A DNA stretch of 41,268 nucleotides, from the sequence record PX216937.1. One strand, given 5' to 3'. This stretch comes from a phage. The notes under the pieces are model-generated. The model was not told where the DNA came from. It worked only from the letters and a program-made list of their open reading frames with translations, and did not search any database. Of this stretch, positions 743-40,892 are shown piece by piece. Made by a program: the position numbers and the translations under genes. Position 1 is the stretch's first letter, and each line of letters starts with the position of its first letter.

Positions 743-765
743 CTTCCCAATAGTGAGTCGTATTA
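743..765 (-). promoter_or_regulatory. Phage RNAP promoter (phiOR-like), minus strand TAATACGACTCACTATTGGGAAG
   Basis: Top strand reads cttcccaatagtgagtcgtatta, the reverse complement of a T7-type 23-bp promoter; lies between gene 19 and gene 19.5 as phiOR does in T7. Confidence 0.8.
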
Positions 766-852
766 ATTTCTTCATGTATATCAGTAAGTTACTTAACGGT
801 AACGTAGCGGTACTAAGTGCTTACCTATGCACCTTTCCCGCATACTTATCTA

Positions 853-2613
853 TTACCACTCAATGAAGCAGCTAGAGTCTCCGTCGTCCTCGTAGTAGAT
901 GTCCACGCCACCAACATCGTAGCTATGGATAGCATCACCACCAATGGTCTGTTTCTCCATGTGGTGTTCAAGGAACTCAAGGGTCATCTCTTCTTCACCT
1001 ACACGGCTGTCCACAAGCATCCCTTCACGCAGGAACTCGATACCCAATGCGATAGCATCAAGTCGGTCATCGTGTGCCACAGCGCCTCGCTCACGGGTCA
1101 TACGGGTCATCTGATAGAACGCACTGTAGCGAACATCATGTTTCCCATCTAGGTCACGAGCAGTCTGATAATCTTCACGGATAACCTCATCACGAATGAC
1201 CAGCTTGTGCGCACCCATCAACGGCTCGATAGTATCGCAGATTCGCATCTCCTTCATGCCCTTAGCACGGATTTCCTCTAAGGCACACTTGTGGTGCTTC
1301 AGAAGAATCGGAGAGAAAATCTTACCGAACATACCGTCACCAAAGTTGGACTCATGGACTACTGTCTGTACCTTCCACTGCTTGGCCTTCTTAGCGAGCT
1401 TCTCTAGGGTAGCATCTTCGTAACCACCACGGAACCCACCGACTTCCATCAAGTAGATATAACCATTAAGTGAGTATAGTACTGCATACCCGGTCTCATC
1501 CTTACCACGACCACTTGGGTCAATGACCAGAATCTTAGACTGATACTCAGCGGTACGAGAAGAGCACGTATGGAACGCATGGATGTCATCACCCTTCAGA
1601 CCAACGTTAGGAAGTTCCTCATTGCGGTTCTGACGGTTCGGCAACCACTGGTAAGACAATGGGGCACGTTCAGGGTCCACAGCGCACACGATAGCGTCAC
1701 GGAGGCGTAGCGGGTACTTCTCGGCATCACTAAGGTTCGGGTTAAGCATGAACTGGAGTGTGTAGCCAGCTTTACCATATTCGAGTTCACGTTCACGGAG
1801 GTCATCCATATCGAATCGAACAGGGTCAGTAGGTTGACCACGGAGTAACTCGAAGCCCTCATCATATTCAGCCTTAAGCATCGGAGCCAAGCGGTCCCCA
1901 TAGTAGAGAGCCTCAGCGTCATTACGTGGATACTGTGCAGGCCAGATTACTGTGCTGTACCCTTTGTTATCCTCAAGTTCCTTATAGAGAGTCATCTCGG
2001 TTTGAGGTGTCCCAAGGTAGATAACACGAGAGGTAGGCAGCGGCTTAAGTAACGCAGCAAACTCAGTTACCAACGTCCAGAGCTTCTCACGGGCAGAACT
2101 CGTAGAGCTATTACCGGGAACCTCAACGTCATCCGCGATGATAATGTCAGCACGGCTACCAGTCAACTGACCAGTGATACCTACAGACTTCACAGAGGGT
2201 GAGTGGTCTGGTTTAGCCAATCCAACGTCGAAGCTAATCACAGAGTCTCGCTGTCCCGGTCGAGGTTTCAACTCAGAGAGGAACGGCAGCAGGTCAATGA
2301 TGTTCTTGATGAAGATGGAGTTAGCATCAGCACGTTCCTTAGAGGCAGACACGATGAGCACCTTGAGTTGAGGGTCACGCCATAAGACCCACACAACGAA
2401 CGCACAGGTGATAAAGGACTTGCCGATACCACGGAACGCCTGAAGGATAAACTTCTTGTGGTCGCCGTTAGCGAGTGTACGTGCCATATCAATCTGACAC
2501 TTGGTTGGTTTAGGTAAGTTCAGAGCCTTCCATAAGACGAACAGGAAAGCGACGAAGTCACCCTTAAGTTGCGCTATGATTAACGCATTCTTAGCTTCTT
2601 GGGATTGTGACAT
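853..2613 (-). CDS. 19: Terminase large subunit (DNA maturase B)
   Basis: 586-aa ORF; same length and terminal position as T7 gp19; Walker-type motif region (GIGKSF) present. Confidence 0.95.
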
Positions 2614-3059
2614 TACTTAGCCTCCTTCTTAGTTTGCATTTCTTTGATTGTATCTTGGAGCGCACGAATCCACGCATCCCCTCTTTGAGTTACTCCGATA
2701 AGACGCTTACTAAACTCTTCGTCAAGTTCGGCTCGACCATCAACGAGGCATCCACCGTTATCTTGGAGTTCTCGTGTGGTAGCTGATAGTTTGACGCGCA
2801 AGCGCTTACCATCGTTACGCAAATCATTAATGACCCTATCAGTGCTGCCTTCCAGCGCCGCAAGGTCTTCTTGGTATTGTCGTGAGATTTCGTTGACAGC
2901 AGTCTGTTTATTCGCAGTCGCCTTAACTTTCTTAATGTACTCATTGTGCACCTCCTGTTCCCATTTAGTGTTAGCTTTGTCATATCCATGGTTATACGCA
3001 AGGGTAATTCCCAAGGCAAACGCAGCGATTATGGCGTATCTCTTTAAATTCTTGAGCAT
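2613..3059 (-). CDS. 18.5: Rz-like i-spanin (gp18.5)
   Basis: 148 aa with an N-terminal transmembrane segment and coiled-coil-like remainder; position and size match T7 gp18.5. Confidence 0.8.
2690..2944 (-). CDS. 18.7: Rz1-like o-spanin (gp18.7), embedded in 18.5 in another frame
   Basis: Internal Met of track ORF 2690..3019 gives [11 protein letters not shown]...[17 protein letters not shown]...SLMVEPNLT, a lipobox-like Cys context and close recalled similarity to T7 gp18.7. Confidence 0.7.
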   Translation of the reverse strand: MSTLRKLRRLRINRLLSTKSHDNTKKTLRRWKAALIGSLMICVTMVSACASNYQLPHENSKITVDASLMVEPNLTKSLVSVLSE

Positions 3060-3157
3060 AACTACCCTCCCGTATTTTCAGATTTCAACGTGCGTTACCG
3101 CGAGTTGTGATAAAATATCATAAAGACCACTAGATGTAGTGGCCTTGAGTTATTCTA

Positions 3158-3427
3158 TCAGTTCAGTGTGTACTTCTCATCTTCAGTGAGACCGTCAGCG
3201 CCCACTAGGTTCTGGTACTCTTCGAGTCCATCTGCCAGGCCACCAAGGATGTTACGGTCTGGCTGTAACTTGGAGACTTGGAACTTGTGGCGCTCTAACA
3301 GTTTCCCGATAGCGTTGTACAGTTGAGGTGTGCGCTTATCATCATCCTGAAGGTCTTTCAGCATACGTTGAGCCATCTCAGTGTCCAGCATCTCAAGGAA
3401 TTGAATCAAGGACTTATCATTAGACAT
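3158..3427 (-). CDS. 18: Terminase small subunit (DNA maturase A)
   Basis: 89 aa, same size and position as T7 gp18. Confidence 0.85.
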   Translation of the reverse strand: MSNDKSLIQFLEMLDTEMAQRMLKDLQDDDKRTPQLYNAIGKLLERHKFQVSKLQPDRNILGGLADGLEEYQNLVGADGLTEDEKYTLN

Positions 3428-3626
3428 CTTTACCCTCCTTCTTCCATTTGATAATCACATCGACTACCTTGGCACCAATTTGAGCCACTGTGTAGGCAAT
3501 TGCAGCTACATAGAACCACTCGTTAAGGGACAGTCCGAAGAACAGACGGGCAGCACCATCGGCTACACCTGTCCCTACAATCGGAGCAGCCTTCACTACC
3601 TCGTTATTAAAATCTAATGAAAGCAT
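3420..3626 (-). CDS. 17.5: Class II holin (gp17.5)
   Basis: 68 aa MLSLDFNNEVVKAAPIVGTGVADGAARLFFGLSLNEWFYVAAIAYTV..., nearly identical to recalled T7 gp17.5. Confidence 0.9.
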   Translation of the reverse strand: MLSLDFNNEVVKAAPIVGTGVADGAARLFFGLSLNEWFYVAAIAYTVAQIGAKVVDVIIKWKKEGKDV

Positions 3627-3740
3627 AAAACCTCCAGTTTAAAAGCGGGTCGTCCGTGACCCAAAGTTGTTACCATACATTGGTCATCGTGTAGTTAGCC
3701 TCTACCTCCACAACCTTCGATGACTCAATACCATTCTATT

Positions 3741-3775
3741 GATAAACTAACCCGCCGAAACGGGGTTTGTTGTTG
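3741..3775. terminator. GC hairpin followed by a T-rich run in the 157-bp spacer between gene 17 and gene 17.5 (candidate terminator/attenuator, orientation ambiguous)
   Basis: Top strand aacccgccgaaacggggtttgttgttgtt: short GC stem, small loop, then a T-rich tract (reads as a plus-strand terminator; a weaker minus-strand reading also exists). Confidence 0.3.
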
Positions 3776-3783
3776 TTATATTA

Positions 3784-6495
3784 TTAATCAGCGTAAAGCA
3801 TTAAGAACATAATAAGCTCTTCATAACGGATTCCATACCGTACACCAGCTGGTTTAACTGTTACAACTTCCTCTAACGTTTCTGGATTAATGCTTCTTTC
3901 AGAAGATTCTTCCCACTCGTCCTTGCACCAGAATGCGTAATCCTCTGGTTTAAGTCCATGCTTTGTTAGGATAGAACCAACGGTTTGCGCACCAACACCG
4001 AAGTGGATACGTGCAGATGCTTCCCCCTTAAGTACTATAGCGTCAGTAAATTTGTAGCGAATAATATTCTTACGAATTTCATTAGCCGCATTTCTTTCCG
4101 CACTCTCATTCACTGCTGGGGTTTTTTTCTTCAGTGTTTCATCGGAAGTAACAATGGTGCTTGAAGCAGCATAAATAGCACTCCACCGATGATCCGTGTA
4201 ACCAAATACCGTAGAGTTATCGACAGCAGGTAAAATACCATTATACCCTTCAATAATGAGGTCACCCTTAGGGTTACCAGAAGACGACTTACCATCATAA
4301 CTAGTAAGGGTGATCCCCTTAGTGCCCCCAGTAGTTGTTAACATAATACCAGCATTGGTAGCACCCAAGAGCTGAATATCGCTATTATCATTACGCAAAT
4401 CCTGTACAGGTGCTTCAAGTACAGTTGACGTGAATTTCCATTTCGTATCAGAAAAAAGTTCGACCGGTTGCACGTCATCCTTCTGGTACATCATGGCTTT
4501 AACACCGGAGTCCTTGCGTCTTACACCGATTGCGTTTGGTTGTGACCCGGACCAGTTAGACGCGAAAGTAAACCCGTCAAATTCCACTACAGACTCATAA
4601 GGATTGCTGGTATCGTTATTGATGGGTTCTGTAATAAAAATCCATCCCCAGTCGAAATAGTTATTATAAGTCCCTACGTTAGCATCTATCTGATACGCCC
4701 GGGTGCACACCTCCCCATAGTAACCGTAGAATCTCAGGTTCCCAGCAACTTGTGAGTCTGAGCTTACGGTTTTAACCACACGCACACCACACGGTACATC
4801 TGCTGGTCCAGTTGCTTTGGTTATATTCTCACAAGAACCACCAAACACACGAAGTGAGTCCGTGCTTTCAATCCAGAACGCACAGTTTCCCGTTACGTGA
4901 ATTGGGTTGTAAATAGTGATTCTGGTGTTGTTGTTGTCGCCTGAAACACTCCGGTTGAATCTAAACCCGCAGTCAACGTTTTCAAATACTGGATTTTTTA
5001 TGGTGTGATAATATGCAGCACTATTAGCCCCAAAAACTGTTGGTCCCGGTTGCAGTAACACCCCTACAGAGACGTCTGTCGCTTTTGGGTTGTTTAGCTG
5101 ACAAAACTGTTGCGATACACGTGCAGTAGTTTGTGTGAGGTCTTCCGGGCTTATTGCGTATGCCACTACTTCTGTGAAACCATCTGGATTTATTACCGTA
5201 GGGTTAGTTACGATGCAGAAATCATGGCTCATTCTTAAGCATGTGATACCAGAAGCTCCTGCTACGATTGTTGTTCCGGTGAAATCAATATACCTTGTAG
5301 ACGTAACATCCTGCGTATACGAGCCATCGAATTTCATTACAAGACTTTGTGTTATGCGATATCTCGCACCTACTCTTCCTGTTAATTTACCAAACGGCAC
5401 AATCTCCAACCACGACAATGCCGCCAGCATCGCGGAGGTATCATTAGTTACACCGTCGCCAATAGCACCGAACTCTTCAAATGATTTTATTGTCGTAGCC
5501 CGATGGGCAATCTGGTCAATTGTTGCACCATGCTTTGTTAGATTAGATCTAATAGACGCATCACCAACACTAACCCACTTCCCTAATCCAATCCCACCGG
5601 AAGTTTCAGGAGTTGAACCAGCAGGGATGTTCTTTGGAAGCGTACCATCCCAGCGGTAATACTCACCATTCTCTTCCCACAGTAGTACCTCGTTCCATGT
5701 TACAACGTTGAAGCCTTTCTCGAAGGAGCGACGGGTAACATAGCCAATTCGAGCAGATGCCTTGATACTATCAGCGATTCGTCGTGCTTCGTCCTCGCTA
5801 TCCTTAGCGTTTCCAGCATAGCTACCAGCAGATGCTGCATATTGTCCAGAAGTATTCTTGAACTGCTCGGCTTCATTCCGGAATTCGTTAGCCTCATCGC
5901 GCCATTGCTTTGCGTTCGTAGCGTGGGTGCTGGACTCGTTCTTAAAGCCCTCCGCTTGATTTCTGAAAGTATCAGCCTCATTGCGGAACTGTAGGGCCTC
6001 ATTACGTGCCTGCCATGAGTTCTGGTTCATGGTCTTAAGTTGACCAAACGGAACAGCGTCTCGGTTATCCACGGCGTTCACTAGGTTCATGATACGACGA
6101 CCACGTGCATCCAAGTGACCATCATTATTGACCCCAATGGTATCCGCAGTTAGGTCTCGTGCTTCTTCAGCAACGTGAAGCGTTTGAATCTGTGCAATGT
6201 TCAGGTCATATGCGCGAAGGATTGAGCCATCAGCAAAGTCAACCAGACGGTCTGTCGCGGAGGTGAAACGACGAATCTCAATGGAGTCATATCCATCAGC
6301 AGCCGTCCATGCACGAGTTGTAGTGATTTGTGTCTTAGTGGTGAACCGATAGTCCTGATTGAGAACCAGTTCCTTACGGTCTTTACCAATTAGAGTTACC
6401 GTCACAAACTTACGCGCTAAATATTCGAAGGTGATTGCAAAGTCTACAGCACCAGTCAGCGGGTAAGTCATTACGGTACGAATTTTAAGAGCCAT
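3784..6495 (-). CDS. 17: Tail fibre/tailspike (gp17): T7-like N-terminal attachment domain fused to a long divergent C-terminal module
   Basis: 903 aa versus 553 aa in T7. The first ~250 aa match recalled T7 gp17 (ARKFVTVTLIG, DGSILRAYDLN, VNNDGHLDARGRRI, NQNSWQARNEALQFRNEA); the rest does not. Contains GDGVTNDTSA and a C-terminal SDETLKKK motif. Confidence 0.9.
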   Translation of the reverse strand: MALKIRTVMTYPLTGAVDFAITFEYLARKFVTVTLIGKDRKELVLNQDYRFTTKTQITTTRAWTAADGYDSIEIRRFTSATDRLVDFADGSILRAYDLNIAQIQTLHVAEEARDLTADTIGVNNDGHLDARGRRIMNLVNAVDNRDAVPFGQLKTMNQNSWQARNEALQFRNEADTFRNQAEGFKNESSTHATNAKQWRDEANEFRNEAEQFKNTSGQYAASAGSYAGNAKDSEDEARRIADSIKASARIGYVTRRSFEKGFNVVTWNEVLLWEENGEYYRWDGTLPKNIPAGSTPETSGGIGLGKWVSVGDASIRSNLTKHGATIDQIAHRATTIKSFEEFGAIGDGVTNDTSAMLAALSWLEIVPFGKLTGRVGARYRITQSLVMKFDGSYTQDVTSTRYIDFTGTTIVAGASGITCLRMSHDFCIVTNPTVINPDGFTEVVAYAISPEDLTQTTARVSQQFCQLNNPKATDVSVGVLLQPGPTVFGANSAAYYHTIKNPVFENVDCGFRFNRSVSGDNNNTRITIYNPIHVTGNCAFWIESTDSLRVFGGSCENITKATGPADVPCGVRVVKTVSSDSQVAGNLRFYGYYGEVCTRAYQIDANVGTYNNYFDWGWIFITEPINNDTSNPYESVVEFDGFTFASNWSGSQPNAIGVRRKDSGVKAMMYQKDDVQPVELFSDTKWKFTSTVLEAPVQDLRNDNSDIQLLGATNAGIMLTTTGGTKGITLTSYDGKSSSGNPKGDLIIEGYNGILPAVDNSTVFGYTDHRWSAIYAASSTIVTSDETLKKKTPAVNESAERNAANEIRKNIIRYKFTDAIVLKGEASARIHFGVGAQTVGSILTKHGLKPEDYAFWCKDEWEESSERSINPETLEEVVTVKPAGVRYGIRYEELIMFLMLYAD

Positions 6496-6540
6496 AATGT
6501 ACCTCCTTAGTTGGGTATGATAAAGGGAAGCTGTGTGAGC

Positions 6541-6563
6541 CTTCCCAATAGTGAGTCGTATTG
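6541..6563 (-). promoter_or_regulatory. Phage RNAP promoter (phi17-like), CAATACGACTCACTATTGGGAAG
   Basis: Reverse-complement promoter match immediately upstream of gene 17. Confidence 0.8.
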
Positions 6564-6564
6564 A

Positions 6565-13878: not shown

Positions 13879-13901
13879 CTTCCCAATAGTGAGTCGTATT
13901 G
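13879..13901 (-). promoter_or_regulatory. Phage RNAP promoter (phi13-like), CAATACGACTCACTATTGGGAAG
   Basis: Reverse-complement promoter match between gene 12 and gene 13. Confidence 0.8.
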
Positions 13902-16935: not shown

Positions 16936-16958
16936 CCTCCCATTAGTGAGTCTATTAG
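16936..16958 (-). promoter_or_regulatory. Degenerate phage-promoter-like element between T-phi and gene 11 (CTAATAGACTCACTAATGGGAGG)
   Basis: Keeps the GACTCACTA core and GGGAGG start region but lacks one base and has substitutions in the -17..-12 part relative to this genome's consensus. Confidence 0.4.
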
Positions 16959-16963: not shown

Positions 16964-17005
16964 CGAAAAAAACCCCTCAAGCACCCGCGAAGGCACCCAA
17001 GGGGT
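16964..17005 (-). terminator. T-phi-like intrinsic terminator downstream of the capsid gene
   Basis: Minus-strand AAACCCCTTGGGTGCCTTCGCGGGTGCTTGAGGGGTTTTTTT: GC-rich stem with G-U pairs and a U-run, resembling T7 T-phi in sequence and position. Confidence 0.75.
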
Positions 17006-18322: not shown

Positions 18323-18345
18323 TCTCCCAATAGTGAGTCGTATTA
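18323..18345 (-). promoter_or_regulatory. Phage RNAP promoter (phi10-like), TAATACGACTCACTATTGGGAGA
   Basis: Reverse-complement promoter match; about 145-nt leader to the gene 10 ATG at 18179. Confidence 0.85.
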
Positions 18346-19300: not shown

Positions 19301-19323
19301 TCTCCCATTAGTGAGTCGTATTA
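19301..19323 (-). promoter_or_regulatory. Phage RNAP promoter (phi9-like), TAATACGACTCACTAATGGGAGA
   Basis: Reverse-complement promoter match overlapping the end of gene 8, upstream of gene 9. Confidence 0.8.
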
Positions 19324-22235: not shown

Positions 22236-22258
22236 CCTCTCAATAGTGAGTCGTATTA
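22236..22258 (-). promoter_or_regulatory. Phage RNAP promoter (phi6.5-like), TAATACGACTCACTATTGAGAGG
   Basis: Reverse-complement promoter match upstream of gene 6.5. Confidence 0.8.
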
Positions 22259-26622: not shown

Positions 26623-26630
26623 TGTGTTTA

Positions 26631-26757
26631 CTCCTTAAGCGGATTGATAAGTGGGAACAGAGTGTCTGTCCCATTAGTGAGTTGTACTGATTGCTCAGAA
26701 GTCTTGACCATCGTCTTCTGGTTCCCAGCCGCTATCTCCATCTCCTTCATCTTCAGG
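26631..26757. repeat. 127-bp exact duplicate of 27911..28037 (gene 4 3' end plus phi4.3 promoter and Shine-Dalgarno), inserted directly upstream of gene 5
   Basis: Base-by-base comparison: ctccttaagcggattgataagtgggaacagagtgtctgtcccattagtgagttgtactgattgctcagaagtcttgaccatcgtcttctggttcccagccgctatctccatctccttcatcttcagg occurs at both sites. Confidence 0.9.
26666..26688 (-). promoter_or_regulatory. Duplicated copy of the phi4.3-type promoter (AGTACAACTCACTAATGGGACAG) about 45 bp upstream of the gene 5 start
   Basis: Identical to the promoter at 27946..27968; lies within the duplicated segment. Confidence 0.7.
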
Positions 26758-26868
26758 ATCAGGTCGATAACGGATGTACTGGTCAGTTGTGTAGTCGTAA
26801 GTCACCGCACAGTGAAATTGACTAACGTTGTGCAGCAACCCGTTTGTTTCGATGTCGGATAGTAACAT
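26696..26868 (-). pseudogene. Truncated second copy of the gene 5 5' end (first 37 codons plus RBS; exact repeat 26758..26884 of 26512..26638) fused in frame to the duplicated gene 4 tail (20 codons); potential 57-aa ORF
   Basis: 26758..26884 is identical to 26512..26638. Reading from the duplicated ATG gives MLLSDIETNGLLHNVSQFHCAVTYDYTTDQYIRYRPD followed in frame by [20 protein letters not shown] and a stop. Below the track's size cut-off. Confidence 0.6.
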
Positions 26869-26887
26869 TGTGTTTACTCCTTAAAGT

Positions 26888-27293: not shown

Positions 27294-27316
27294 TTCTCCC
27301 ATTAGTGAGTTGAATA
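27294..27316 (-). promoter_or_regulatory. Phage RNAP promoter (phi4.7-like), TATTCAACTCACTAATGGGAGAA
   Basis: Class-II-like variant of the promoter consensus immediately upstream of the 4.7-position ORF. Confidence 0.7.
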
Positions 27317-27319
27317 GAT

Positions 27320-27904: not shown

Positions 27905-27945
27905 TGTGAGTCTCCTTAAGCGGATTGATAAGTGGGAACAGAGTG

Positions 27946-27968
27946 TCTGTCCCATTAGTGAGTTGTAC
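27946..27968 (-). promoter_or_regulatory. Phage RNAP promoter (phi4.3-like), AGTACAACTCACTAATGGGACAG
   Basis: Promoter-like 23-mer between the gene 4 stop and the gene 4.3 start. Confidence 0.7.
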
Positions 27969-27975
27969 TGATTGC

Positions 27976-29785
<1,810 letters not shown>

Positions 29786-29835: not shown

Positions 29836-29858
29836 TCCTCCCATAGTGAGTTCTATTA
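29836..29858 (-). promoter_or_regulatory. Phage RNAP promoter (phi3.8-like), TAATAGAACTCACTATGGGAGGA
   Basis: Reverse-complement promoter-like match just downstream of gene 3.5. Confidence 0.7.
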
Positions 29859-31452: not shown

Positions 31453-31499
31453 AATGTTTCTCCTTTAGTTTCTGAAAGTTAAAAGTGGGAAACGTTGTG

Positions 31500-31522
31500 T
31501 CTCCCAATAGTGAGTCCTATTA
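31500..31522 (-). promoter_or_regulatory. Phage RNAP promoter (phi2.5-like), TAATAGGACTCACTATTGGGAGA
   Basis: Reverse-complement promoter match between gene 2 and gene 2.5. Confidence 0.8.
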
Positions 31523-32494: not shown

Positions 32495-32500
32495 TTGTGT

Positions 32501-32523
32501 GTCCTCCATATGTGAGTCGTATT
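32501..32523 (-). promoter_or_regulatory. Phage RNAP promoter variant (phi1.6-like), TAATACGACTCACATATGGAGGA
   Basis: Promoter-like 23-mer with deviations around -4..-1. Confidence 0.6.
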
Positions 32524-32602
32524 AGCAATCAGGCCAGCAGTTGTCGTCAATGATAACGAGGGCAAACGTGGCAACAATGATAGCAACAATTAGAAATAGC
32601 AT
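32522..32602 (-). CDS. Possible small hydrophobic peptide (26 aa, MLFLIVAIIVATFALVIIDDNCWPDC)
   Basis: ATG preceded by GGAGGAA directly downstream of the phi1.5-like promoter. It is the in-frame 3' part of track ORF 32522..32836, whose upstream part overlaps the ligase gene and is rejected. Confidence 0.35.
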   Translation of the reverse strand: MLFLIVAIIVATFALVIIDDNCWPDC

Positions 32603-32623
32603 GAGGTCGTTCCTCCATAGTGA
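32601..32623 (-). promoter_or_regulatory. Phage RNAP promoter variant (phi1.5-like), TCTATTAGACTCACTATGGAGGA
   Basis: Promoter-like 23-mer immediately downstream of the TE-like hairpin. Confidence 0.55.
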
Positions 32624-32626
32624 GTC

Positions 32627-32658
32627 TAATAGAAACGCGAAAAGGCCAGCCCCTGTTA
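32627..32658 (-). terminator. TE-like early intrinsic terminator downstream of the ligase gene
   Basis: Minus-strand GGUCAGUCC-UUAACA-GGGGCUGGCC hairpin (with G-U pairs) followed by UUUUCGCGUUUCU; T7 places TE after gene 1.3. Confidence 0.55.
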
Positions 32659-32678
32659 AGGACTGACCGTTTGTTGGT

Positions 32679-33719
32679 TTACATCTTGACCGTTGGGTCT
32701 GACTCGACACCACGGAACATAACGAACGATGGGTGACGCAGAGAACCGTCTGGAGTTTCCTCCATGTAGGCAACCTGACAGGCGTGTCCATCGTAGAACT
32801 TCTCGCCCTCAATGTTAACCGTATTGGTGAACTCATCCATCAACGCTTGGCTGATATTGTTAGCTGAGACTACGCGACCGGACTCCAAGAGAACCTCGAA
32901 GCCAATCACTTTACCTTCATTAGCCAGACCCGGAGTACCCCAATTGAGTCCAACGATGACACCATCAGCTTCACATTCAGGCTTCATCTTCCAGTAGCCA
33001 GACTTCTTGCCACGCATGTAGAAGCCCAGTGGGTCTTTGACTACCAGACCTTCATGGCCATCGGCACGGGCTTTCTCATAGAGGGCATTCAGTTCTACCA
33101 TATCGTACACTTCGTAGCTCTCAGAGATGTCCCATTCGATTTCAGGGAAGTGCTCACGAAGAACAGGAAGCATAGCCTTAACGTGCTCACGCATCAGTAG
33201 GTTCATCACTTCGTAGGTCTCACCGGAGACCATAGAGTCAAACGGCATGACACCATAGAGAACAACCTTTAGTTTCTCAGGTGATAGCATGAATGGGTGA
33301 TTCTTACGGATTTTACCGTACATATCTACAGCTTCCACAAAGTTCTCGTCTGTGTTGAACTCAAGGTTCTTATCCTTAACCCACTTGGTCCTCAGTAAGC
33401 CAGACCCCGTGTTAAAGTCCACGCCTTTGACCATCAGTTCACCATCAAGCATGAAGCCATCAGGGAAGATACAGCGGTCATCCTTCAGGAGCATCTCCCA
33501 GCGCTTGTCGTACCCGTTGAGATGTGACAGAGAGGGAATCTCTTTAGATACGCGAGAGAGCCACAGTGAGTCAGCAGTGTTGTCAACTACAATGTTACCA
33601 CGAACGCCATCATATTTAATGTCAGCAATCAGGTAGCCAGCTTTGTCGAGGGCTTTATTAACGGCAGACTCAACGAATGATACAGCTTTGTGTGGGTTAG
33701 TCTTAAATGTGATTTCCAT
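32679..33719 (-). CDS. 1.3: ATP-dependent DNA ligase (gp1.3)
   Basis: 346 aa; KTNP.KAVSFVESA, active-site AEIKYDGVRGNI-type motif (ADIKYDGVRGNI), GFMLDGELMVKGVDFNTGSGLLRTKW, EGKVIGFEVLLESGR and ETPDGSLRHPSFVMFRG match recalled T7 ligase. Confidence 0.97.
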   Translation of the reverse strand: MEITFKTNPHKAVSFVESAVNKALDKAGYLIADIKYDGVRGNIVVDNTADSLWLSRVSKEIPSLSHLNGYDKRWEMLLKDDRCIFPDGFMLDGELMVKGVDFNTGSGLLRTKWVKDKNLEFNTDENFVEAVDMYGKIRKNHPFMLSPEKLKVVLYGVMPFDSMVSGETYEVMNLLMREHVKAMLPVLREHFPEIEWDISESYEVYDMVELNALYEKARADGHEGLVVKDPLGFYMRGKKSGYWKMKPECEADGVIVGLNWGTPGLANEGKVIGFEVLLESGRVVSANNISQALMDEFTNTVNIEGEKFYDGHACQVAYMEETPDGSLRHPSFVMFRGVESDPTVKM

Positions 33720-33740
33720 GATGGAACTCCTATGTATGTG

Positions 33741-33810
33741 TTATTGGTTAATGTTTAAGCAAAAGTTAATCACAAAGGCAACCCGTGAAGATGACCTTTA
33801 GTTTAACTCT
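33741..33810 (-). promoter_or_regulatory. RNase III-type processing hairpin (R1.3-like)
   Basis: aaagttaatcacaaaggcaacccgtgaagatgacctttagtttaactc, a paralogue of the 27320..27378 element. Confidence 0.5.
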
Positions 33811-33833
33811 TTCGCAATAGTGAGTCGTATTAC
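33811..33833 (-). promoter_or_regulatory. Phage RNAP promoter (phi1.3-like), TAATACGACTCACTATTGCGAAA
   Basis: Reverse-complement promoter match overlapping the gene 1.2 stop codon. Confidence 0.7.
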
Positions 33834-34102
33834 TTCCAGTGCTTCATATCACTGTGAACCTTGCGGAGCCATTCAGTCTGTGCATTACAGCGAACGTCTT
33901 CGTCTGACTGTTCGAAACACTTAGCGGTCAGCATTAAGCCGTTCCGTAAGACCACTCGAAGTGTCTCTCCGGCGACCATCCGTCGCTGTGCGAAGTCCTC
34001 ATAGCGATAAGTCTCAACGACCACATTTGCATCATGGTCTTCTTTAAGTCGTTCGATAGCGTCTTTGTATGCTATTAAGTTACCACTGTATAAGCGACCC
34101 AT
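33830..34102 (-). CDS. 1.2: gp1.2 (dGTPase inhibitor in T7)
   Basis: 90 aa, begins MGRLYSGNL and ends HWK; recalled T7 gp1.2 begins MGRLYSGNL and ends DWK. Confidence 0.85.
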   Translation of the reverse strand: MGRLYSGNLIAYKDAIERLKEDHDANVVVETYRYEDFAQRRMVAGETLRVVLRNGLMLTAKCFEQSDEDVRCNAQTEWLRKVHSDMKHWK

Positions 34103-34251: not shown

Positions 34252-34269
34252 AATATTGTTTCCTTCTGT

Positions 34270-34400: not shown

Positions 34401-34407
34401 TTCAGTG

Positions 34408-34430
34408 TTTCCCATTAGTGAGTCGTATTG
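34408..34430 (-). promoter_or_regulatory. Phage RNAP promoter (phi1.1B-like), CAATACGACTCACTAATGGGAAA
   Basis: Promoter match; the stop codon and last five codons (DNTTH) of the upstream ORF are encoded within it. Confidence 0.7.
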
Positions 34431-34972
34431 TCTGCAACCTTACGTGCAATCTCAATGCGACCAGCTACGTCTTTCTTATAATAGGTGAACTCTTTGCGCT
34501 CACCATCAGTGCACGTCTGTGTCAGCAGGTAGCGGTCCGATTGTTCTTTCCAGTGCAAACATGTAACCTCTTTGCCGCAAGACCCTATGCCTAGCTTGAA
34601 CTCAGTGCGCTTCCATCCAGCATCCGGGATGTGAGCAGTAAACTTGATAGACGTGATGTCACTGTGAGTGTACTCACGGATGGTACTCTTTGCCTCTTTA
34701 AGTTCCTTGCGGTACTCCACTGCCTCAGCGCGTAGACGCTCAATGAGTTCTCGTTGGTTCGACATGTCATATTGTTGTTCGAACTCTAAGGTACGGATTC
34801 GACCAGCCAGTTCCTGCTTCTCTCGCCATCCGTCTTCAAGTCTCTCTTTGAGTGCGTGAGAGTTCTTCTCTTCTTTGATTAGCTTGGTGAGAAATACCTT
34901 TGAGCGATTGTAGTATGTTGCTGCAAGAATGGTTGCCACGAGAGCGCCTACTGAAGTGATGAAAGTAAACAT
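34415..34972 (-). CDS. Hypothetical membrane-anchored protein with coiled-coil and Cys-rich C-terminal region (gene 1.05 position, between phi1.1A and phi1.1B)
   Basis: 185 aa from the Met preceded by AAGAGGAAA: N-terminal hydrophobic helix (FTFITSVGALVATILAATYY), charged heptad-like middle, C-terminal C-x6-C-x2-H...C-x3-E. No T7 counterpart that I recognise. Confidence 0.6.
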   Translation of the reverse strand: MFTFITSVGALVATILAATYYNRSKVFLTKLIKEEKNSHALKERLEDGWREKQELAGRIRTLEFEQQYDMSNQRELIERLRAEAVEYRKELKEAKSTIREYTHSDITSIKFTAHIPDAGWKRTEFKLGIGSCGKEVTCLHWKEQSDRYLLTQTCTDGERKEFTYYKKDVAGRIEIARKVADNTTH

Positions 34973-35032
34973 GATTATGTTTCCTCTTAAAGTTAAACTT
35001 AAAGTTATCTTAAAGTAGGGAAACCCCAAGGG

Positions 35033-35055
35033 TCTCCCAATAGTGAGTCGTATTA
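35033..35055 (-). promoter_or_regulatory. Phage RNAP promoter (phi1.1A-like), TAATACGACTCACTATTGGGAGA
   Basis: Consensus match 8 bp downstream of the gene 1 stop. Confidence 0.85.
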
Positions 35056-35062
35056 GATTCCG

Positions 35063-37714
35063 TTAGGCAAACGCAAAGTCTGACTTAAGGATTTCTTGGA
35101 GGTCAAGAGCGCCTTTAGCTGGCATCTCAGGCATCTTGTCAAGCTGTGACTCGTGCAACTGGTCAGCAAACTGTTCATAGAAGTCTGCAAGTACATCGTT
35201 CTCTTCGTAAGTGTTAACCATCGTTTCACGCACTGCTTTAAACAGGTTGCCAGCATCAGCAGGAATAGTACCAAAGGAGTCATGAATCAGTGCAAAGGAT
35301 TCCACACCGTAGACCTCATTGGAGCGAACCACAGTCATGCGCAGGTGACTACCATCCATTGAGTGAACAAAGTTAGGTGCGATGCCTGACTCCTGCTTAC
35401 GTGCGTCAATTCCGCTATCCTTGTTGGTGTTCACGGTAGGCTGCAAACGAATCTGCCCCAAGAACATCAGGTTCAAACGAGTCTGTACTGGCTTCTTGTA
35501 TTCCTGCCAGACCGGGAAGCCATCAGGAGTTACCCAATGTACCGCGCAGCGCTTGCGGAGAACCTCTTTAGTCTTCTTGTCCTTGACTTCAGCAGCCAGA
35601 AGTTTAGCAGCAGACTTCAACCAGTTCATCGCTTCAACCGCTGCGACAACTGTGACCGTTACAGCGTTCCAAATCAGTTTAGCCATATAGCCAGCCGCTT
35701 GGTTCGGTTGAGTGAACATCAATCCCTTGCCATCGTCGATAGCGGGCTGAATGGTGTCCTCAAGAACTTGGTCACGGAAGCCGTACTCTTTGGAACCGTA
35801 AGCCAACGTCATGACAGAACGTTTAGTGACCTTGCGGGTTACACCGTATGCCAGCCACTGACCAGCCAGTTCCTTCGTGCCTAACTTCAGCTTCTCAGTG
35901 ATTTCTCCCGTGTCCTTATTGGTCACTGTCTCTACTTCGTTGTCGGTCCCGTTGATAACATCTTGATTCAGGATTTCGTTAACACGGTCAGCAACAATGC
36001 GGTAGATGTCTTGGACTTCCTTGCTCGGCAGCAGGTTAACAGCGCGTCCACCTACTTCATCACGCAGCATTGCAGAGAAGTGCTGAATACCAGAGCAAGA
36101 GCCATCGAACGCCAGCGGCAGAGAGCAGTTGTAGTTCATACCGTGGTGCTGCACACCTGCATACTCAAAGCAGAATGCGAGGAAGCAGAACGGAGAGTCT
36201 TGTTCAGCCCACCAAGTGTTAGCAATAGGGTCAGCCGCAACGCTCATGATGTTCTCGTGGTTGTCCTCAATGAACTTGATGCGTTCTGCAAAGTCCACCT
36301 TGTCCACACCAGCAGTGTTTGCACCGTGAATCTTCAGCCAGTAGTACCCATCGACACCAATCGGTTTACCTTTAGCGAGCGTTAACAGACCCTTGGTCAT
36401 GTCGTTGCCTTGCGGGTTGAACATCGGTACAGCGTACACACGACCGCGCCAGTCCATGTTCATCGGGAACCAGATAGCTTTAAACTGTGCGAACTTATTG
36501 GCTTGTCCTAACATGAACTCCATGCTCATGCGACGAGACACGCGAGCCTTCTCTTTGCGATAGATTGCGGAGGCCGCTTTCTTCCACGCTTTCAGAGCCG
36601 CTTCGTTCGTGTCGATGTCTTCAGGTTTGACCGGAAGTTCACCACGTTCGAGAGCAGGTACATCTTCAACCGGGCAATGCTTCCAGTTCACAATCTCGTT
36701 GACCACTGCCAGAACCTTCTTGTTAATCTTCCAAGGAGTATTCTGTGCGATGTTCACCGCCTTGTAAACTTCAGGCATGTACACGTCGTTGTAACGCTCA
36801 AGTCCCTTCTTGGAACCAGTGCGAACCAGAGAGAGAGGCTTGCGACCAGCAGCCCAATATCCACCACCTACCGGAGAAGTCCAAGGCTTCGGCGGGACCA
36901 CACAAGGTTGGTACATTGGAGCGATTGCAGCCAGTGCGCCAGCACGTTTAGATAGCAGGTCAACATATTGCTCGGTTAACTGGATGTACTCACCATCCTT
37001 CTCAACGTTACCAGCAAACGGTCGGTGTAACTCAACGAGACCAGTAGACCCGATGAGCAGTTCCAACATGCGCACACCAACGTGGATTGATTCTTCAGGT
37101 GTCCATGTAGTCCACTTGGTTTGCAGTTGACCAGCATCTAACATCTTGCCTTCTACAGCTTGCATGAATGCTTTCTTGTAGACGATACCAACGCGCTTGT
37201 TCAGTGCCTCCTGTACGTGATTCTTAAAGTGTTTCGCTTCTTCATCACGAATGCGTCCGAAACGTAACTCATCTTCAATGCTACGACCAATCTTAGTGGC
37301 GACCGATTGAAGGTTCGTGTATTCCTCTTTCGTCAAGCAAGCCAGTGTGACCTTCAGTGTGATGAATGCGGCAGCTTCCGGTGCAATCTTCTGTACCAGA
37401 TTGTAGGCCACTGGACGCTTGCCACGCTTAGCTTCCACTTCGGTGAACCAAGTGTTCCATGCTTCAATGAACTTCGGTGCGAGAGATGACAGGAGCGGTT
37501 TAGCCACTGCGTTATCACCGAATTCACCAGCTTTGATTTGACGTTCCATAGCCTTCAGGAAACGCTTCTCGCCTTCGGTGTGCGCTTCGTGTTCCAACTC
37601 AAGCTGCGTAGCTGCAAGCTGTGCGCCATAATGGTCAGCCAGAATGTTGTACGGCTGAATTGCGTTAGCGATGTCAGAGAAGTCGTTCTTTGGTGCGTTG
37701 ATTACGTTAGTCAT
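35063..37714 (-). CDS. 1: Single-subunit DNA-directed RNA polymerase (T7 RNAP family)
   Basis: 883 aa, the same length as T7 RNAP; long identical blocks (GRRPLALVRT-like, KAIWFP.NMDWRGRVYAV, GNDMTKGLLTLAKGKPIG, DSPFCFLAFCFEYAGVQHHG, LPLAFDGSCSGIQHFSAMLRDEVGGRAVNLLPS, specificity-loop region NTNKDSGIDARKQESGIAPNFVHS, C-terminal FAFA). Confidence 0.99.
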   Translation of the reverse strand: MTNVINAPKNDFSDIANAIQPYNILADHYGAQLAATQLELEHEAHTEGEKRFLKAMERQIKAGEFGDNAVAKPLLSSLAPKFIEAWNTWFTEVEAKRGKRPVAYNLVQKIAPEAAAFITLKVTLACLTKEEYTNLQSVATKIGRSIEDELRFGRIRDEEAKHFKNHVQEALNKRVGIVYKKAFMQAVEGKMLDAGQLQTKWTTWTPEESIHVGVRMLELLIGSTGLVELHRPFAGNVEKDGEYIQLTEQYVDLLSKRAGALAAIAPMYQPCVVPPKPWTSPVGGGYWAAGRKPLSLVRTGSKKGLERYNDVYMPEVYKAVNIAQNTPWKINKKVLAVVNEIVNWKHCPVEDVPALERGELPVKPEDIDTNEAALKAWKKAASAIYRKEKARVSRRMSMEFMLGQANKFAQFKAIWFPMNMDWRGRVYAVPMFNPQGNDMTKGLLTLAKGKPIGVDGYYWLKIHGANTAGVDKVDFAERIKFIEDNHENIMSVAADPIANTWWAEQDSPFCFLAFCFEYAGVQHHGMNYNCSLPLAFDGSCSGIQHFSAMLRDEVGGRAVNLLPSKEVQDIYRIVADRVNEILNQDVINGTDNEVETVTNKDTGEITEKLKLGTKELAGQWLAYGVTRKVTKRSVMTLAYGSKEYGFRDQVLEDTIQPAIDDGKGLMFTQPNQAAGYMAKLIWNAVTVTVVAAVEAMNWLKSAAKLLAAEVKDKKTKEVLRKRCAVHWVTPDGFPVWQEYKKPVQTRLNLMFLGQIRLQPTVNTNKDSGIDARKQESGIAPNFVHSMDGSHLRMTVVRSNEVYGVESFALIHDSFGTIPADAGNLFKAVRETMVNTYEENDVLADFYEQFADQLHESQLDKMPEMPAKGALDLQEILKSDFAFA

Positions 37715-37740
37715 TGTTGCCTCACGTTGTTAAGAAAGTT

Positions 37741-37790
37741 TATCTATAAAGGCCAGCAGTCAGTGCCGACCTTGAAGATACACCTTATCA
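37741..37790 (-). promoter_or_regulatory. RNase III-type hairpin (R1-like) between gene 0.7 and gene 1
   Basis: Minus-strand AAGGUCGGCACUGACUGCUGGCCUU imperfect hairpin; no phage promoter here, consistent with host-RNAP transcription of gene 1. Confidence 0.45.
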
Positions 37791-38888: not shown

Positions 38889-38909
38889 TAGATTGTGTCC
38901 TATTTAAGT

Positions 38910-39128
38910 TTAAGAAATAGCGTTCAATGTATTGGTTAATGCTTGTTCGAGTGCTGCGAGCTTCTGTGCTTTGACCTTGGCCTTTCGTCTATGCCATGCA
39001 GCCCGCTCCTGTTCCTTGCGTCGTTCGAGGTTGTTCTCACGCCAAGTTCTCACGATACGCCTGTTTGCTGCATTGAGTGTACCATTAGACCTATAGCCTT
39101 TCTTCAGTTCATCAGTGTGTTGCAACAT
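38910..39128 (-). CDS. Hypothetical small basic early protein
   Basis: 72-aa ORF, Arg/Lys-rich, coiled-coil-like; lies in the early region between the SAMase-like gene and the kinase. Confidence 0.5.
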   Translation of the reverse strand: MLQHTDELKKGYRSNGTLNAANRRIVRTWRENNLERRKEQERAAWHRRKAKVKAQKLAALEQALTNTLNAIS

Positions 39129-39324
39129 AGAAGATACCTACCTTGTTAGCCTTAAAGCGCCCGTTGAGTTCACGGACTGTGAATCGTGGTAGAAAGCCAT
39201 ACTTCAGGTGCGAGAAGTTAGCCTTGTGTACCTTGAGACCCTTGCGGAAGTCCCGAAGGAAGTACGCCCCAATCAGAGCGTACATTGTGATTACGAAGAG
39301 TGCGACCATTAGACCACCTTCCAA
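39112..39324 (-). CDS. Hypothetical small early protein with N-terminal hydrophobic segment
   Basis: 70-aa ORF (the true start may be the internal Met MVALFVITMYALIGAYFL); overlaps the SAMase stop by a few codons. Confidence 0.45.
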   Translation of the reverse strand: MEGGLMVALFVITMYALIGAYFLRDFRKGLKVHKANFSHLKYGFLPRFTVRELNGRFKANKVGIFYVATH

Positions 39325-39764
39325 CCACGTCCGAACTCATCGACCGTGTAGTTACCAGTCAGTTCAGCATCTTGTGCGACCATCTGGAAAGACCCAATGC
39401 GCTCAGTCTTCCAACCACCCAAGCCACCAGCAAAGATTAGTGCGGCGCTGTGAGTCTGTGCCTTATAGACCAGCACACAGTCTTGCTCATAGTCGTTACA
39501 AGCCAACCGTGCGACACTTACAGCTTGTGCCTTGGTTGTGCAGCGTACTCGGATGGTTTGCTCTTCAGCGGGTGACTCCATGCCAGCCTCATGGTAACAA
39601 CCTGTCAAGTCAGTAGACTCAACACTGCCATATTCCATCGGTGCATTGCGTAAGCTGTTGACTAAGCGACGATGACGGCTAAGGTTATCCAAGTGGTGCA
39701 GGTTAGAGCGGAACGCTGATACCAGTACATAGAATACGTTTGCAGGCTCGTTAGTGTAAATCAT
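39309..39764 (-). CDS. S-adenosyl-L-methionine hydrolase/lyase (T3-type SAMase-like anti-restriction protein)
   Basis: 151 aa, MIYTNEPANVFYVLVSAFRSNL...YGSVESTDLTGCY...VRC..KAQA..VARLACN..EQDCVLVYK.QTH...TIDEFGR.W.V; strong resemblance to the T3 gene 0.3 SAMase as I recall it (152 aa). Confidence 0.8.
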   Translation of the reverse strand: MIYTNEPANVFYVLVSAFRSNLHHLDNLSRHRRLVNSLRNAPMEYGSVESTDLTGCYHEAGMESPAEEQTIRVRCTTKAQAVSVARLACNDYEQDCVLVYKAQTHSAALIFAGGLGGWKTERIGSFQMVAQDAELTGNYTVDEFGRGWKVV

Positions 39765-39786
39765 GATAGTGCCTCATTATGTGTGT

Positions 39787-39840
39787 GTTAGTGATAATCA
39801 AAAAGGCCACTCGCTAGGAGCGACCTTGAGTTTATCACTC
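39787..39840 (-). promoter_or_regulatory. RNase III-type hairpin (R0.5-like) between the Ocr and SAMase-like genes
   Basis: gataatcaaaaaggccactcgctaggagcgaccttgagtttatcac; imperfect hairpin of the same family as 40210..40265. Confidence 0.5.
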
Positions 39841-40179
39841 AGCAGACTCTTCGACTTCCTCAAGATATTCGTCCAGTAAGTCCTCAGCGTCTTCCCAAAG
39901 GTCAATCGTTAATTGCTCATAGATACGTGCTTGCAGAATACGGATTACATCCTTGGTGTCCGGCATCAGACCAGAATCCTCAAACTCAAGGTTAATGCCT
40001 TCGCTTGCCATTACGCTGAAAACCTCGCTGTAGTAGTGCGGAACAGCATTATCAGCAGCCATGTGCACTGCATCGTGCAGGCCATCAGTGTCACGGATGT
40101 CATCATAACGGATGTTTTCTTTCAGCATTTCGTAAGCGTGGTCAAAAACGTTGTTATAAGTCATGTTAGACATAGCCAT
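39835..40179 (-). CDS. 0.3: Ocr (overcome classical restriction) DNA-mimic anti-restriction protein
   Basis: 114 aa, [48 protein letters not shown]...[56 protein letters not shown]; near-identical to recalled T7 Ocr. Confidence 0.97.
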
Positions 40180-40209
40180 CTTGTGTTACCTCATGTGGTT
40201 GTTAGTCAG

Positions 40210-40265
40210 TGATTATCAAAAAGGCTCCTCGTATAGTGCTTTCGAGTCACCTTGAGTTAATCACT
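40210..40265 (-). promoter_or_regulatory. RNase III-type hairpin (R0.3-like) upstream of the Ocr gene
   Basis: Minus-strand GUGAUUAACUCAAGGUGACUCGAAAGCACUAUACGAGGAGCCUUUUUGAUAAUCAC imperfect hairpin. Confidence 0.5.
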
Positions 40266-40534
40266 ATCGGCTTCGTCACTGTTTAAACGCTAGTGCGTTC
40301 ACGTCATCCCGTAGTTCTTGACTACCTGTCTCGCAGTAGGGAATTACACGACCAAATTGTTAAAGAACTTTAAGTGCAGGTTTGTTAGCACCGAGTCACT
40401 TTCAGTGTGTGACCTCACAAGAACGTTATGTATGTTTCCGACAAGCTCTTTATTATCGTGGTCGCTTGTGCTTTCGGCATCTATCCACTATGTCGCGTTT
40501 TTACACCTACGACACTCGGTGTCTACTGCGATAC

Positions 40535-40564
40535 ATCTTACATCTTGTTGTTGCTGCTTGTCAA
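40535..40564 (-). promoter_or_regulatory. Host sigma70-type early promoter (A3-position): TTGACA - 18 bp - TAAGAT
   Basis: Minus-strand TTGACAagcagcaacaacaagatgTAAGAT; the hexamers are the same as those I recall for a T7 early promoter. Confidence 0.55.
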
Positions 40565-40630
40565 CTACTTTTGTTTGTCACCGTGACACCTCATGTTGTT
40601 TCATAGGGCGACCATTTGTTGACGACTGCT

Positions 40631-40659
40631 ATACTACGTTATTGCTTTCGTTGAGTCAA
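40631..40659 (-). promoter_or_regulatory. Host sigma70-type early promoter (A2-position): TTGACT - 17 bp - TAGTAT
   Basis: Minus-strand TTGACTcaacgaaagcaataacgTAGTAT. Confidence 0.5.
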
Positions 40660-40765
40660 CCACTTTCTTATGTCTGGTTGATGACTACTTGAGACCCTTC
40701 AGCATTACCAGATAACTCGCGGTCTTGTCTGGTAGTTGATAGCGTTGTGTCTCTCAACGGTTGCT

Positions 40766-40794
40766 ATAGTCTCATAGTTGTTTCTCAGAGTCAA
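40766..40794 (-). promoter_or_regulatory. Host sigma70-type early promoter (A1-position): TTGACT - 17 bp - GACTAT
   Basis: Minus-strand TTGACTctgagaaacaactatgaGACTAT, followed by ...GAGAGACACAACG, which resembles the T7 A1 initial transcribed region (GAGAGGGACACGG). Confidence 0.45.
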
Positions 40795-40869
40795 CCATTA
40801 GTTGAAACTTTAAGTAGTCTTAGAGTCTCTTTAAGTTAGACATATAGAGAAGGGCAATCAACATAGACC

Positions 40870-40892
40870 ATTCTCAATAGTGAGTCGTATAG
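40870..40892 (-). promoter_or_regulatory. Phage RNAP promoter (phiOL-like), CTATACGACTCACTATTGAGAAT
   Basis: Promoter-like match near the genome left end, upstream of the sigma70 promoters, as phiOL is in T7. Confidence 0.65.

Follow-up and report, generated by a model that had tools for sequence, protein, structure and literature searches.

Kluyvera phage Kvp1, a member of the genus Berlinvirus, has 14 annotated promoters in its RefSeq record (NC_011534) with the consensus TAATACGACTCACTATTGGGAGA, and its promoter logos were described as closest to those of Yersinia phage Berlin of the same genus (PMC2579914). For Pectobacterium phage PP74, the RNA polymerase (RNAP) is reported to transcribe in vitro from TAATACGACTCACTATTGGGAA, and a single-nucleotide change of the promoter eliminated the output; the promoter differing in one nucleotide was presumably that of T7 (PMC11475235). 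For T7-type polymerases, contacts of N748 with positions -11 and -10, of R756 with -9 and of Q758 with -8 have been described (PMC5937735). A search of a paper library with the exact 23-mer consensus yielded no papers, and the shorter query CACTATTGGGA led to the PP74 study (PMC11475235).

The DNA analysed here, termed the window, is the whole of record PX216937.1 (41,268 nt), a complete linear phage genome with terminal repeats of 198 bp. It shares 97 % identity with Escherichia phage P1338 and about 90 % with the Berlinvirus phages Kvp1, BA14 and FE44. The genome is that of a complete T7-like phage of the Berlinvirus type (Studiervirinae), presented in the window as the reverse complement. 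A promoter set with T at position -1 is already known for such phages: it is annotated in the RefSeq records of close relatives, its sequence has been used experimentally, and T(-1) is a feature of the whole Berlinvirus/Helsettvirus clade.

Number, strand and placement of the promoter elements

The promoter count was taken from a matrix scan of both strands of the window. It yielded eighteen sites of 23 nt (-17 to +6), each of them on the minus strand, and no site on the plus strand. The sites extend from 743-765 to 40870-40892 and are all in coding orientation. An earlier note on this DNA had spoken of about 20 promoters, a number to be lowered to 18, or to 17 should the copy at 26667-26689 prove artefactual (see below). 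The identical scan recovered 17 of 17 annotated T7 promoters and 14 annotated T3 promoters as positive control. With up to three mismatches to TAATACGACTCACTATTGGGAGA, ten matches were present in the window versus 0.00 expected from shuffled sequences. All sites are intergenic or overlap the last codons of the preceding gene, and their order is that known from T7; the next gene follows 14-276 nt downstream of each site with the exception of phiOL. Positions syntenic with T7 are phiOL, 1.1A, 1.3, 1.5, 1.6, 2.5, 3.8, 4.3, 4.7, 6.5, 9, 10, 13, 17 and OR; phi11 and phi1.05/1.1 are placed as in T3 and Kvp1.

The phiOL-type promoter CTATACGACTCACTATTGAGAAT (40870..40892, this and all following sites on the minus strand) was obtained by the matrix scan at the left end of the genome, positioned as T7 phiOL and as a Kvp1 site at 440. 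The early region carries phi1.05 (35033..35055), the counterpart of T7 phi1.1A and an exact consensus TAATACGACTCACTATTGGGAGA, followed by phi1.1 CAATACGACTCACTAATGGGAAA (34408..34430), phi1.3 TAATACGACTCACTATTGCGAAA (33810..33832) and phi1.5 CTATTAGACTCACTATGGAGGAA (32610..32632), the latter with G at -1 and a counterpart of the annotated Kvp1 phi1.5. The weakest candidate of the scan is TAATACGACTCACATATGGAGGA at the phi1.6 position (32502..32524); its core, CACATAT, is irregular and the site may be inactive. It is conserved in place in Berlin, Kvp1 and P1338 and carries no promoter annotation in Kvp1. Further downstream are phi2.5 TAATAGGACTCACTATTGGGAGA (31500..31522), phi3.8/4A TAATAGAACTCACTATGGGAGGA (29836..29858), again with G at -1, and, from the matrix scan, phi4.3 CAGTACAACTCACTAATGGGACA (27948..27970) and phi4.7 CTATTCAACTCACTAATGGGAGA (27295..27317). 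A second, identical phi4.3 copy is located directly upstream of gene 5 (26667..26689). Kvp1 and Berlin lack this extra copy. As it lies inside a 254-bp block composed of two exact 127-nt repeats, it may have arisen as an artefact of the assembly, and the site may thus be absent from the real genome. The duplicated 254-bp arrangement was absent from all 88 matching phage records.

The late region comprises phi6.5 TAATACGACTCACTATTGAGAGG (22236..22258), phi9 TAATACGACTCACTAATGGGAGA (19301..19323), phi10, an exact consensus match that precedes the major capsid gene (18323..18345), phi11 CTAATAGACTCACTAATGGGAGG (16936..16958), phi13 and phi17, both CAATACGACTCACTATTGGGAAG (13879..13901 and 6541..6563), and phiOR TAATACGACTCACTATTGGGAAG (743..765). 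Eight of the sites, namely phi1.05, 1.1, 9, 10, 11, 13, 17 and OR, agree in each of the 23 bases with promoters annotated in Kvp1, where the counterparts of phi10 and phiOR are named phi10A and phi19.2. Between gene 10 and phi11, a Tphi-like stem-loop with a T run downstream of it was observed (16974..16993, minus strand), at a position matching the Tphi terminators of T7 and T3.

Several promoters share bases with the stop codon of the preceding gene. The earlier note had located such overlaps at 33811, 34408 and 19301; the ORF ends agree with this and add two further cases, 31500 and 29836. The TAA of gene 1.2 (ORF 33830-34102) and the TAA of gene 8 (ORF 19321-20928) each form positions -17 to -15 of the promoters at 33810 and 19301, respectively, while the stop codon TAA of gene 1.05 (ORF 34415-35029) lies inside the site at 34408, at -4 to -2. 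The first TAA is likewise the stop of gene 2 in phi2.5 and of gene 3.5 in phi3.8/4A.

Dispersed repeats may also serve as recombination or packaging signals or as processing sites. Against this reading stand the strict single-strand orientation, the placement ahead of genes, the synteny with T7 and T3 promoters that have been defined by experiment, the cognate polymerase in the same genome and the in vitro activity of PP74 RNAP on this sequence (PMC11475235); we consider a non-promoter function highly improbable. The assignment of the elements to the polymerase of the phage itself, already made in the earlier note, is backed by the synteny, the Kvp1 annotation, the control of the scan and the PP74 activity (PMC11475235). 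The 18 elements of this Berlinvirus-type genome are very probably class II/III promoters of its own RNAP; T(-1) would be the base preferred in this lineage.

Sequence of the elements and the base at -1

Positions -10 to -5 (ACTCAC) and the G at +1 are invariant in all 18 sites. G occupies -11 in 14 of 18 sites and A occupies -10 in all of them. At -1, T was found in 16 sites, G in two and A in none, corresponding to 1.5 bits, and the replacement of the T7 base A by T described in the earlier note was borne out. The form CACTATAGGGA, the TATA-GGGA type, did not occur anywhere in the window. The strict T7 (Teseptimavirus) pattern with TATA at -4 to -1 in consensus and class III promoters is therefore missing; the consensus is TAATACGACTCACTATTGGGAGA with T at -1, together with an RNAP of the Berlinvirus clade, as is characteristic of the Berlinvirus type. 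Of the general traits of the T7 group (Studiervirinae), the repeated 23-bp element, the strand, placement and synteny of the sites and a cognate single-subunit RNAP were present. Six sites had been listed as reading TAATACGACTCACTATTGGGAGA, but the match is exact only at 18323 (phi10) and 35033 (phi1.05); phi2.5 has one mismatch, phiOR two, and phi13 and phi17 three each. The class-II-like variants were recovered as CACTAATGGGA (six sites), CACTATGGAGGA (32610) and CACTATGGGAGGA (29836).

Across the window, P1338, Kvp1, Berlin, PP74 and Yersinia phage fPS-54-ocr, A at -1 was observed in 0 of 81 sites versus 16 of 17 in T7. As these 81 sites form sets of orthologues, they do not count as independent events, and the missing A could be traced to one ancestral change, yet one that would have swept about 15 sites. 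The neighbouring position -2 is a mixture of T and A in T7 and in the T(-1) group alike. Orthologous promoters are 79-94 % identical versus 54-82 % for their 40-nt flanks, a comparison that is partly circular as the sites were picked by matrix similarity.

Canonical T7 promoters altered by sequencing errors were rejected as an explanation, since 16 sites carry T(-1) and five other genomes show it as well. A T7/T3 recombinant with foreign promoters, for which an unused T7-type promoter in T3 was considered as precedent, was rejected as well: all sites are of one type that matches the clade of the resident polymerase. A further possibility is a shifted register, in which an extra T was inserted, the start lies one base off the assumed G and the T at -1 is mislabelled. 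Two sites reading TATG-GGAG and TATG-GAGG, one base shorter ahead of the G run, could be taken in this way, and so could phi6.5, one of the small differences between Kvp1 and the window at class II-type sites, with TATGGGAGAG in Kvp1 and TATTGAGAGG in the window. The distance from ACTCAC to the first G, however, equals that of T7 in 16 of 18 sites, with an invariant G there, and the T7 promoter phi2.5 (TATT, then A) is annotated with its start at an equal distance (site start 9090, +1 at 9107). A register shift is very improbable on these grounds, and we keep to T as the base at -1.

RNA polymerase and a possible role of -1

Gene 1 (35063..37714, minus strand) encodes a single-subunit RNA polymerase of 883 aa (Pfam RNA_pol 2.3e-111, RPOL_N 1.7e-21), whose best solved structure by sequence match is T7 RNAP (1cez/1qln). 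The identity is 98.6 % to the enzyme of Kvp1, 97.4 % to Berlin, 93.8 % to PP74, 83.3 % to fPS-54-ocr and 76.9 % to T7. To call it highly T7-like, as was done before, is overstated, because T3 RNAP with 82.2 % identity is closer to the T7 enzyme; by sequence, the polymerase at 77 % identity represents a separate lineage. The catalytic residues D537, K631, Y639, H784 and D812 agree with those of T7 RNAP. The specificity loop is nearly unchanged, in line with the earlier note, with only I743V, F755I, I761V and E768G as exchanges and N748, R756 and Q758 retained. In the AT-rich recognition loop, the core AKRGKRP is likewise that of T7. The specificity is of the T7 and not of the T3 type: N748 is kept, where T3 has D, and is paired with G at -11 and A at -10. 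The proposed correspondence between a conserved loop and conserved upstream promoter positions holds, as -12 to -5 are unchanged, consistent with the published contacts (PMC5937735). The intercalating hairpin has diverged from HRQNAGVVGQDSETIE in T7 to HRPFAGNVEKDGEYIQ, with the changes Q232P, N233F, V236N, G238E, Q239K, S241G, T243Y and E245Q; G238E and Q239K occur in every polymerase of the T(-1) clade.

In the mechanism that we propose, gene 1 RNAP would bind the duplex from -17 to -5; the unchanged specificity loop (N748, R756, Q758) and AKRGKRP core would account for the identity of this part to its T7 counterpart. The intercalating hairpin would melt -4 to -1, TATT or TAAT here and TATA in T7, and by analogy to T7 the polymerase of this phage would initiate at the +1 G, which is invariant. 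T(-1) would be the base preferred by the polymerase lineage, fixed at essentially all Berlinvirus and Helsettvirus promoters; this preference is suggested by the sequence comparison. The near-fixation of T(-1) in the clade points to a co-evolution of the initiation region with a polymerase of diverged hairpin.

The base at -1 could also be functionally neutral, the RNAP using TATA and TATT alike and the difference reflecting lineage drift. Position -1 belongs to the melting and not to the binding region (PMC11617373), an exchange between T and A leaves this region AT-rich, the adjacent -2 varies freely between T and A in both clades, and with phi2.5 T7 itself has a natural TATT promoter, so that T(-1) alone need not exclude T7 RNAP. 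Drift should nevertheless yield a mixture at -1, as is seen at -2, whereas the information content at -1 is high in the window and the counts of A in the six genomes and in T7 are nearly opposite. The cross-transcription of BA14 was unlike that of T7 and T3, and with PP74 RNAP a one-nucleotide promoter change reportedly left no output (PMC11475235). Neutrality of T(-1) is in our judgement unlikely, and a preference of the polymerase lineage for T remains the favoured reading.

Whether -1 also separates the polymerases is a more tentative matter. It is possible, although we would not expect it, that the -1 base together with the diverged hairpin (e.g., G238E, Q239K) renders Berlinvirus-type polymerases orthogonal to that of T7. 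The idea is hinted at by the PP74 data, and the window contributes comparative counts only. If true, -1 and the hairpin would form a specificity switch beyond the classical code of -12 to -8 and the specificity loop, and would explain the BA14 cross-transcription result of 1982 despite identical binding regions. An orthogonality to T7 RNAP by the -1 base would offer a tiny handle for the engineering of orthogonal transcription systems and help to study the contribution of the melting region to promoter choice.

Comparison with T7-like promoter systems

The window shares with T7 the 23-bp promoter architecture, the binding region from -17 to -5, the initial transcribed sequence GGGAGA, the gene order, the promoter positions, promoters that overlap the stop codon of the preceding gene and the residues N748, R756 and Q758. 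It differs in the base at -1, which is A in 16 of 17 T7 promoters versus T in 16 of 18 sites of the window. Berlinvirus polymerases thus combine a binding region identical to that of T7 with a different base at -1. The promoters of Kvp1 and Berlin occupy the same genomic positions as those of the window. The PP74 promoter TAATACGACTCACTATTGGGAA equals the window consensus, and the PP74 RNAP has the same specificity loop and, except for V237I, the same hairpin; PP74 belongs to another species within the genus, and the in vitro activity refers to the PP74 enzyme. In the Helsettvirus fPS-54-ocr, T is found at -1 in 11 of 11 annotated promoters (TAATAC[GA]ACTCACTATTG[GA]GAGA) and -2 is always T, together with an RNAP hairpin of the same type as in the window.

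Genome, early genes and a block of repeats

All long open reading frames (ORFs) and all promoter-like sites of the window lie on the minus strand, thus it presents a T7-like phage genome in reverse-complement orientation. Exact direct terminal repeats of 198 bp (1-198 = 41071-41268; 194 bp in Kvp1) identify it as a complete linear genome. Its genes follow the T7 order, and the first 25 kb are 97.2 % identical to Escherichia phage vB_EcoS_P1338 and about 90 % identical to Kvp1, BA14, FE44, 285P and further members of the genus Berlinvirus. The early region encodes together an Ocr DNA mimic (39835-40179, minus; Pfam ocr, 4.3e-61) and a SAM lyase (39309-39764, minus; S-AdoMet_lyase, 1.1e-39), whereas T7 has only Ocr and T3 only the SAM lyase; Shigella phage A7 likewise carries the pair (PMC8427288). 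The gene 17 tail fibre ORF (3784-6495, minus) has 903 amino acids, far more than in T7 (553) or Kvp1 (590). Since the ORF of P1338 is equally long, these lengths suggest a swapped receptor-binding part.

Between gene 4.7 and gene 5 lies a 254-bp block (26631-26884) composed of two exact 127-nt repeats whose counterparts lie at 27912-28038 and 26512-26638. One repeat comprises the 3' end of gene 4 and the phi4.3 promoter, the other the ribosome-binding site and roughly 35 codons from the start of gene 5. The block creates a duplicate promoter (26667-26689, minus) and a chimeric ORF of 57 amino acids (26695-26868, minus), the gp5 N-terminus fused to the gp4 C-terminus, for which no Pfam match was obtained. 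The arrangement was present in none of 88 related phage records. The largest default k-mer of SPAdes is 127, exactly the length of the repeats in nt, which makes a k-mer artefact of the assembly likely; the block may also be a real duplication by illegitimate recombination.

Promoter sites and their placement

Ten matches to TAATACGACTCACTATTGGGAGA with up to three mismatches were detected, all on the minus strand, at an expectation of 0.00 from 100 shuffles. A matrix seeded with the annotated Kvp1 promoters revealed 18 strong minus-strand sites, the duplicate promoter being the 18th, and none on the plus strand; a second matrix, built de novo from 23-mers containing TCACTA, gave the same numbers. 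The de novo procedure is a fair detector, as it recovered 17 of 17 annotated T7 promoters at the correct coordinates and, in T3, 14 annotated promoters plus a T7-type sequence. The latter, upstream of T3 gene 17 (T3 32757-32779), is marked in the T3 record as not used by the T3 RNA polymerase (RNAP), thus a good sequence match is no guarantee of use by the resident polymerase. The earlier note had counted about 20 T7-like promoters: the family is real, but the matrix scan sets the number at 18. The outermost sites, 743-765 and 40870-40892 (both minus), coincide exactly with the range it gave. Six sites had been credited with one exact 23-mer. This applies to phi10 (18323, minus) and phi1.05 (35033, minus), the counterpart of T7 phi1.1A, but not to phi2.5 (one mismatch), phiOR (two), phi13 and phi17 (three each).

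Positions -10 to -5 (ACTCAC) and +1 (G) are invariant across the 18 sites. As the earlier note had described, T prevails at -1 (16 T, 2 G, no A), and -2 is occupied by T (11) or A (7). The sites read TATT (nine), TAAT (six), TATG (two; 32610 and 29836) or, in one case, contain the irregular core CACATAT; CACTATAGGGA occurs nowhere in the window. The irregular candidate site, 32502-32524 (minus), located at the position of phi1.6, is perfect from -17 to -5 and has one extra base before TAT. Its counterpart in Kvp1 and P1338 has CACCTAT; the site is conserved across the genus and carries no promoter annotation in Kvp1.

All sites are intergenic or overlap the final codons of the preceding gene, and the next gene follows 14-276 nt downstream, phiOL excepted. 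Their order is that of phiOL, 1.05/1.1A, 1.1, 1.3, 1.5, 1.6, 2.5, 3.8/4A, 4.3, 4.7, 6.5, 9, 10, 11, 13, 17 and OR in T7, T3 and Kvp1. The previously noted overlaps with stop codons are real: the opening TAA of a promoter is the stop of genes 1.2 (33830-33832), 8 (19321-19323), 2 (31520-31522) and 3.5 (29856-29858), and the gene 1.05 ORF stops at 34415-34417, at -4 to -2 of site 34408 (all minus). Such overlaps are likewise found in T7 and T3, e.g., T3 phi9 at 19698 with the end of gene 8 at 19700. Between gene 10 and phi11, a stem-loop followed by a T run occupies the position of Tphi in T7 and T3.

RNA polymerase

The single-subunit RNAP (883 amino acids; 35063-37714, minus; Pfam RNA_pol, 2.3e-111, and RPOL_N) has the T7 enzyme as nearest solved structure (1cez, 1qln). 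It had been called highly T7-like. However, its identity is 76.9 % to T7 and 75.5 % to T3 RNAP, below the 82.2 % between these two, thus it represents a distinct lineage rather than an especially close T7 copy. Identities were 98.6 % to Kvp1, 97.4 % to Berlin, 93.8 % to PP74 and 83.3 % to fPS-54-ocr. None of the 205 differences to T7 affects the catalytic residues D537, K631, Y639, H784 and D812.

The recognition loop is, as proposed before, nearly unchanged: only I743V, F755I, I761V and E768G differ from T7 in the specificity loop, and N748, R756 and Q758 are kept, whereas T3 RNAP has D748. These residues contact -11/-10, -9 and -8, respectively (PMC5937735), and their retention fits the T7-identical promoter region from -12 to -5. 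The core AKRGKRP of the AT-rich recognition loop is also kept. The intercalating hairpin has diverged from HRQNAGVVGQDSETIE in T7 to HRPFAGNVEKDGEYIQ. In 50 columns, including G238E, all five polymerases of the clade with T at -1 share a residue found in neither T7 nor T3. Within the initiation complex of T7, the -1 base of the template stacks on W422, a residue presumably conserved here.

The base at -1 in related phages

T at -1 is not special to this phage. The consensus is shared by 14 phage promoters annotated in the Kvp1 RefSeq record, and eight sites of the window agree with annotated Kvp1 promoters over 23 of 23 bases; the promoter logos of Kvp1 were described as nearest to those of phage Berlin (PMC2579914). 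The same scan revealed T at -1 in 13 of 16 sites of P1338, 12 of 16 of Kvp1, 12 of 14 of Berlin, 5 of 6 of PP74 (first 10 kb only) and 11 of 11 of fPS-54-ocr, a Helsettvirus with annotated promoters. The remaining sites in the four Berlinvirus relatives have G, never A. Thus, A at -1 was absent from all 81 sites of the window and five relatives but present in 16 of 17 in T7 (Fisher p ~2e-17, the sites not being independent); T7 phi2.5 reads TATT followed by A. In IMG/VR, ACGACTCACTATTGGGA was present in 53 stretches that belong to 22 contigs, most of them genomes of 38-41 kb, and the TATA version in 65 stretches. In a cell-free study, the promoters predicted for Jarilo, DU_PP_II and Mysterion also have T before the start (PMC11475235).

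Promoters of this type combine two elements, one for binding (-17 to -5) and one for melting and initiation (-4 to +6) (PMC11617373). In the present phage the binding element and the loops reading it correspond to those of T7, and the melting element has stayed AT-rich with T preferred at -1, opened by a hairpin that has diverged from T7. As -1 is almost fixed to a different base in each clade while -2 is a T/A mix in both, we infer that -1 is probably selected through polymerase preference and not drifting. Orthologous promoters were more conserved than their 40-nt flanks in a partly circular test, with 89.6 % versus 61-64 % identity to fPS-54-ocr and 79.1 % versus 54-55 % to T7.

In a coupled cell-free assay of 26 enzymes, PP74 RNAP was the most active, driven from TAATACGACTCACTATTGGGAA, and a change of one nucleotide in the promoter reportedly abolished its output (PMC11475235). 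Among the sequences compared, from part of its table and the T7 control, the T7 promoter alone differs from the PP74 promoter by a single nucleotide, and the '1-nt different' promoter of that work is probably the T7 promoter (PMC11475235). Together with the hairpin, -1 may be a genuine determinant of orthogonality. The main points of the earlier note are real and its interpretation is correct; the sites are the ordinary, previously annotated promoter set of a Berlinvirus and as such already known.
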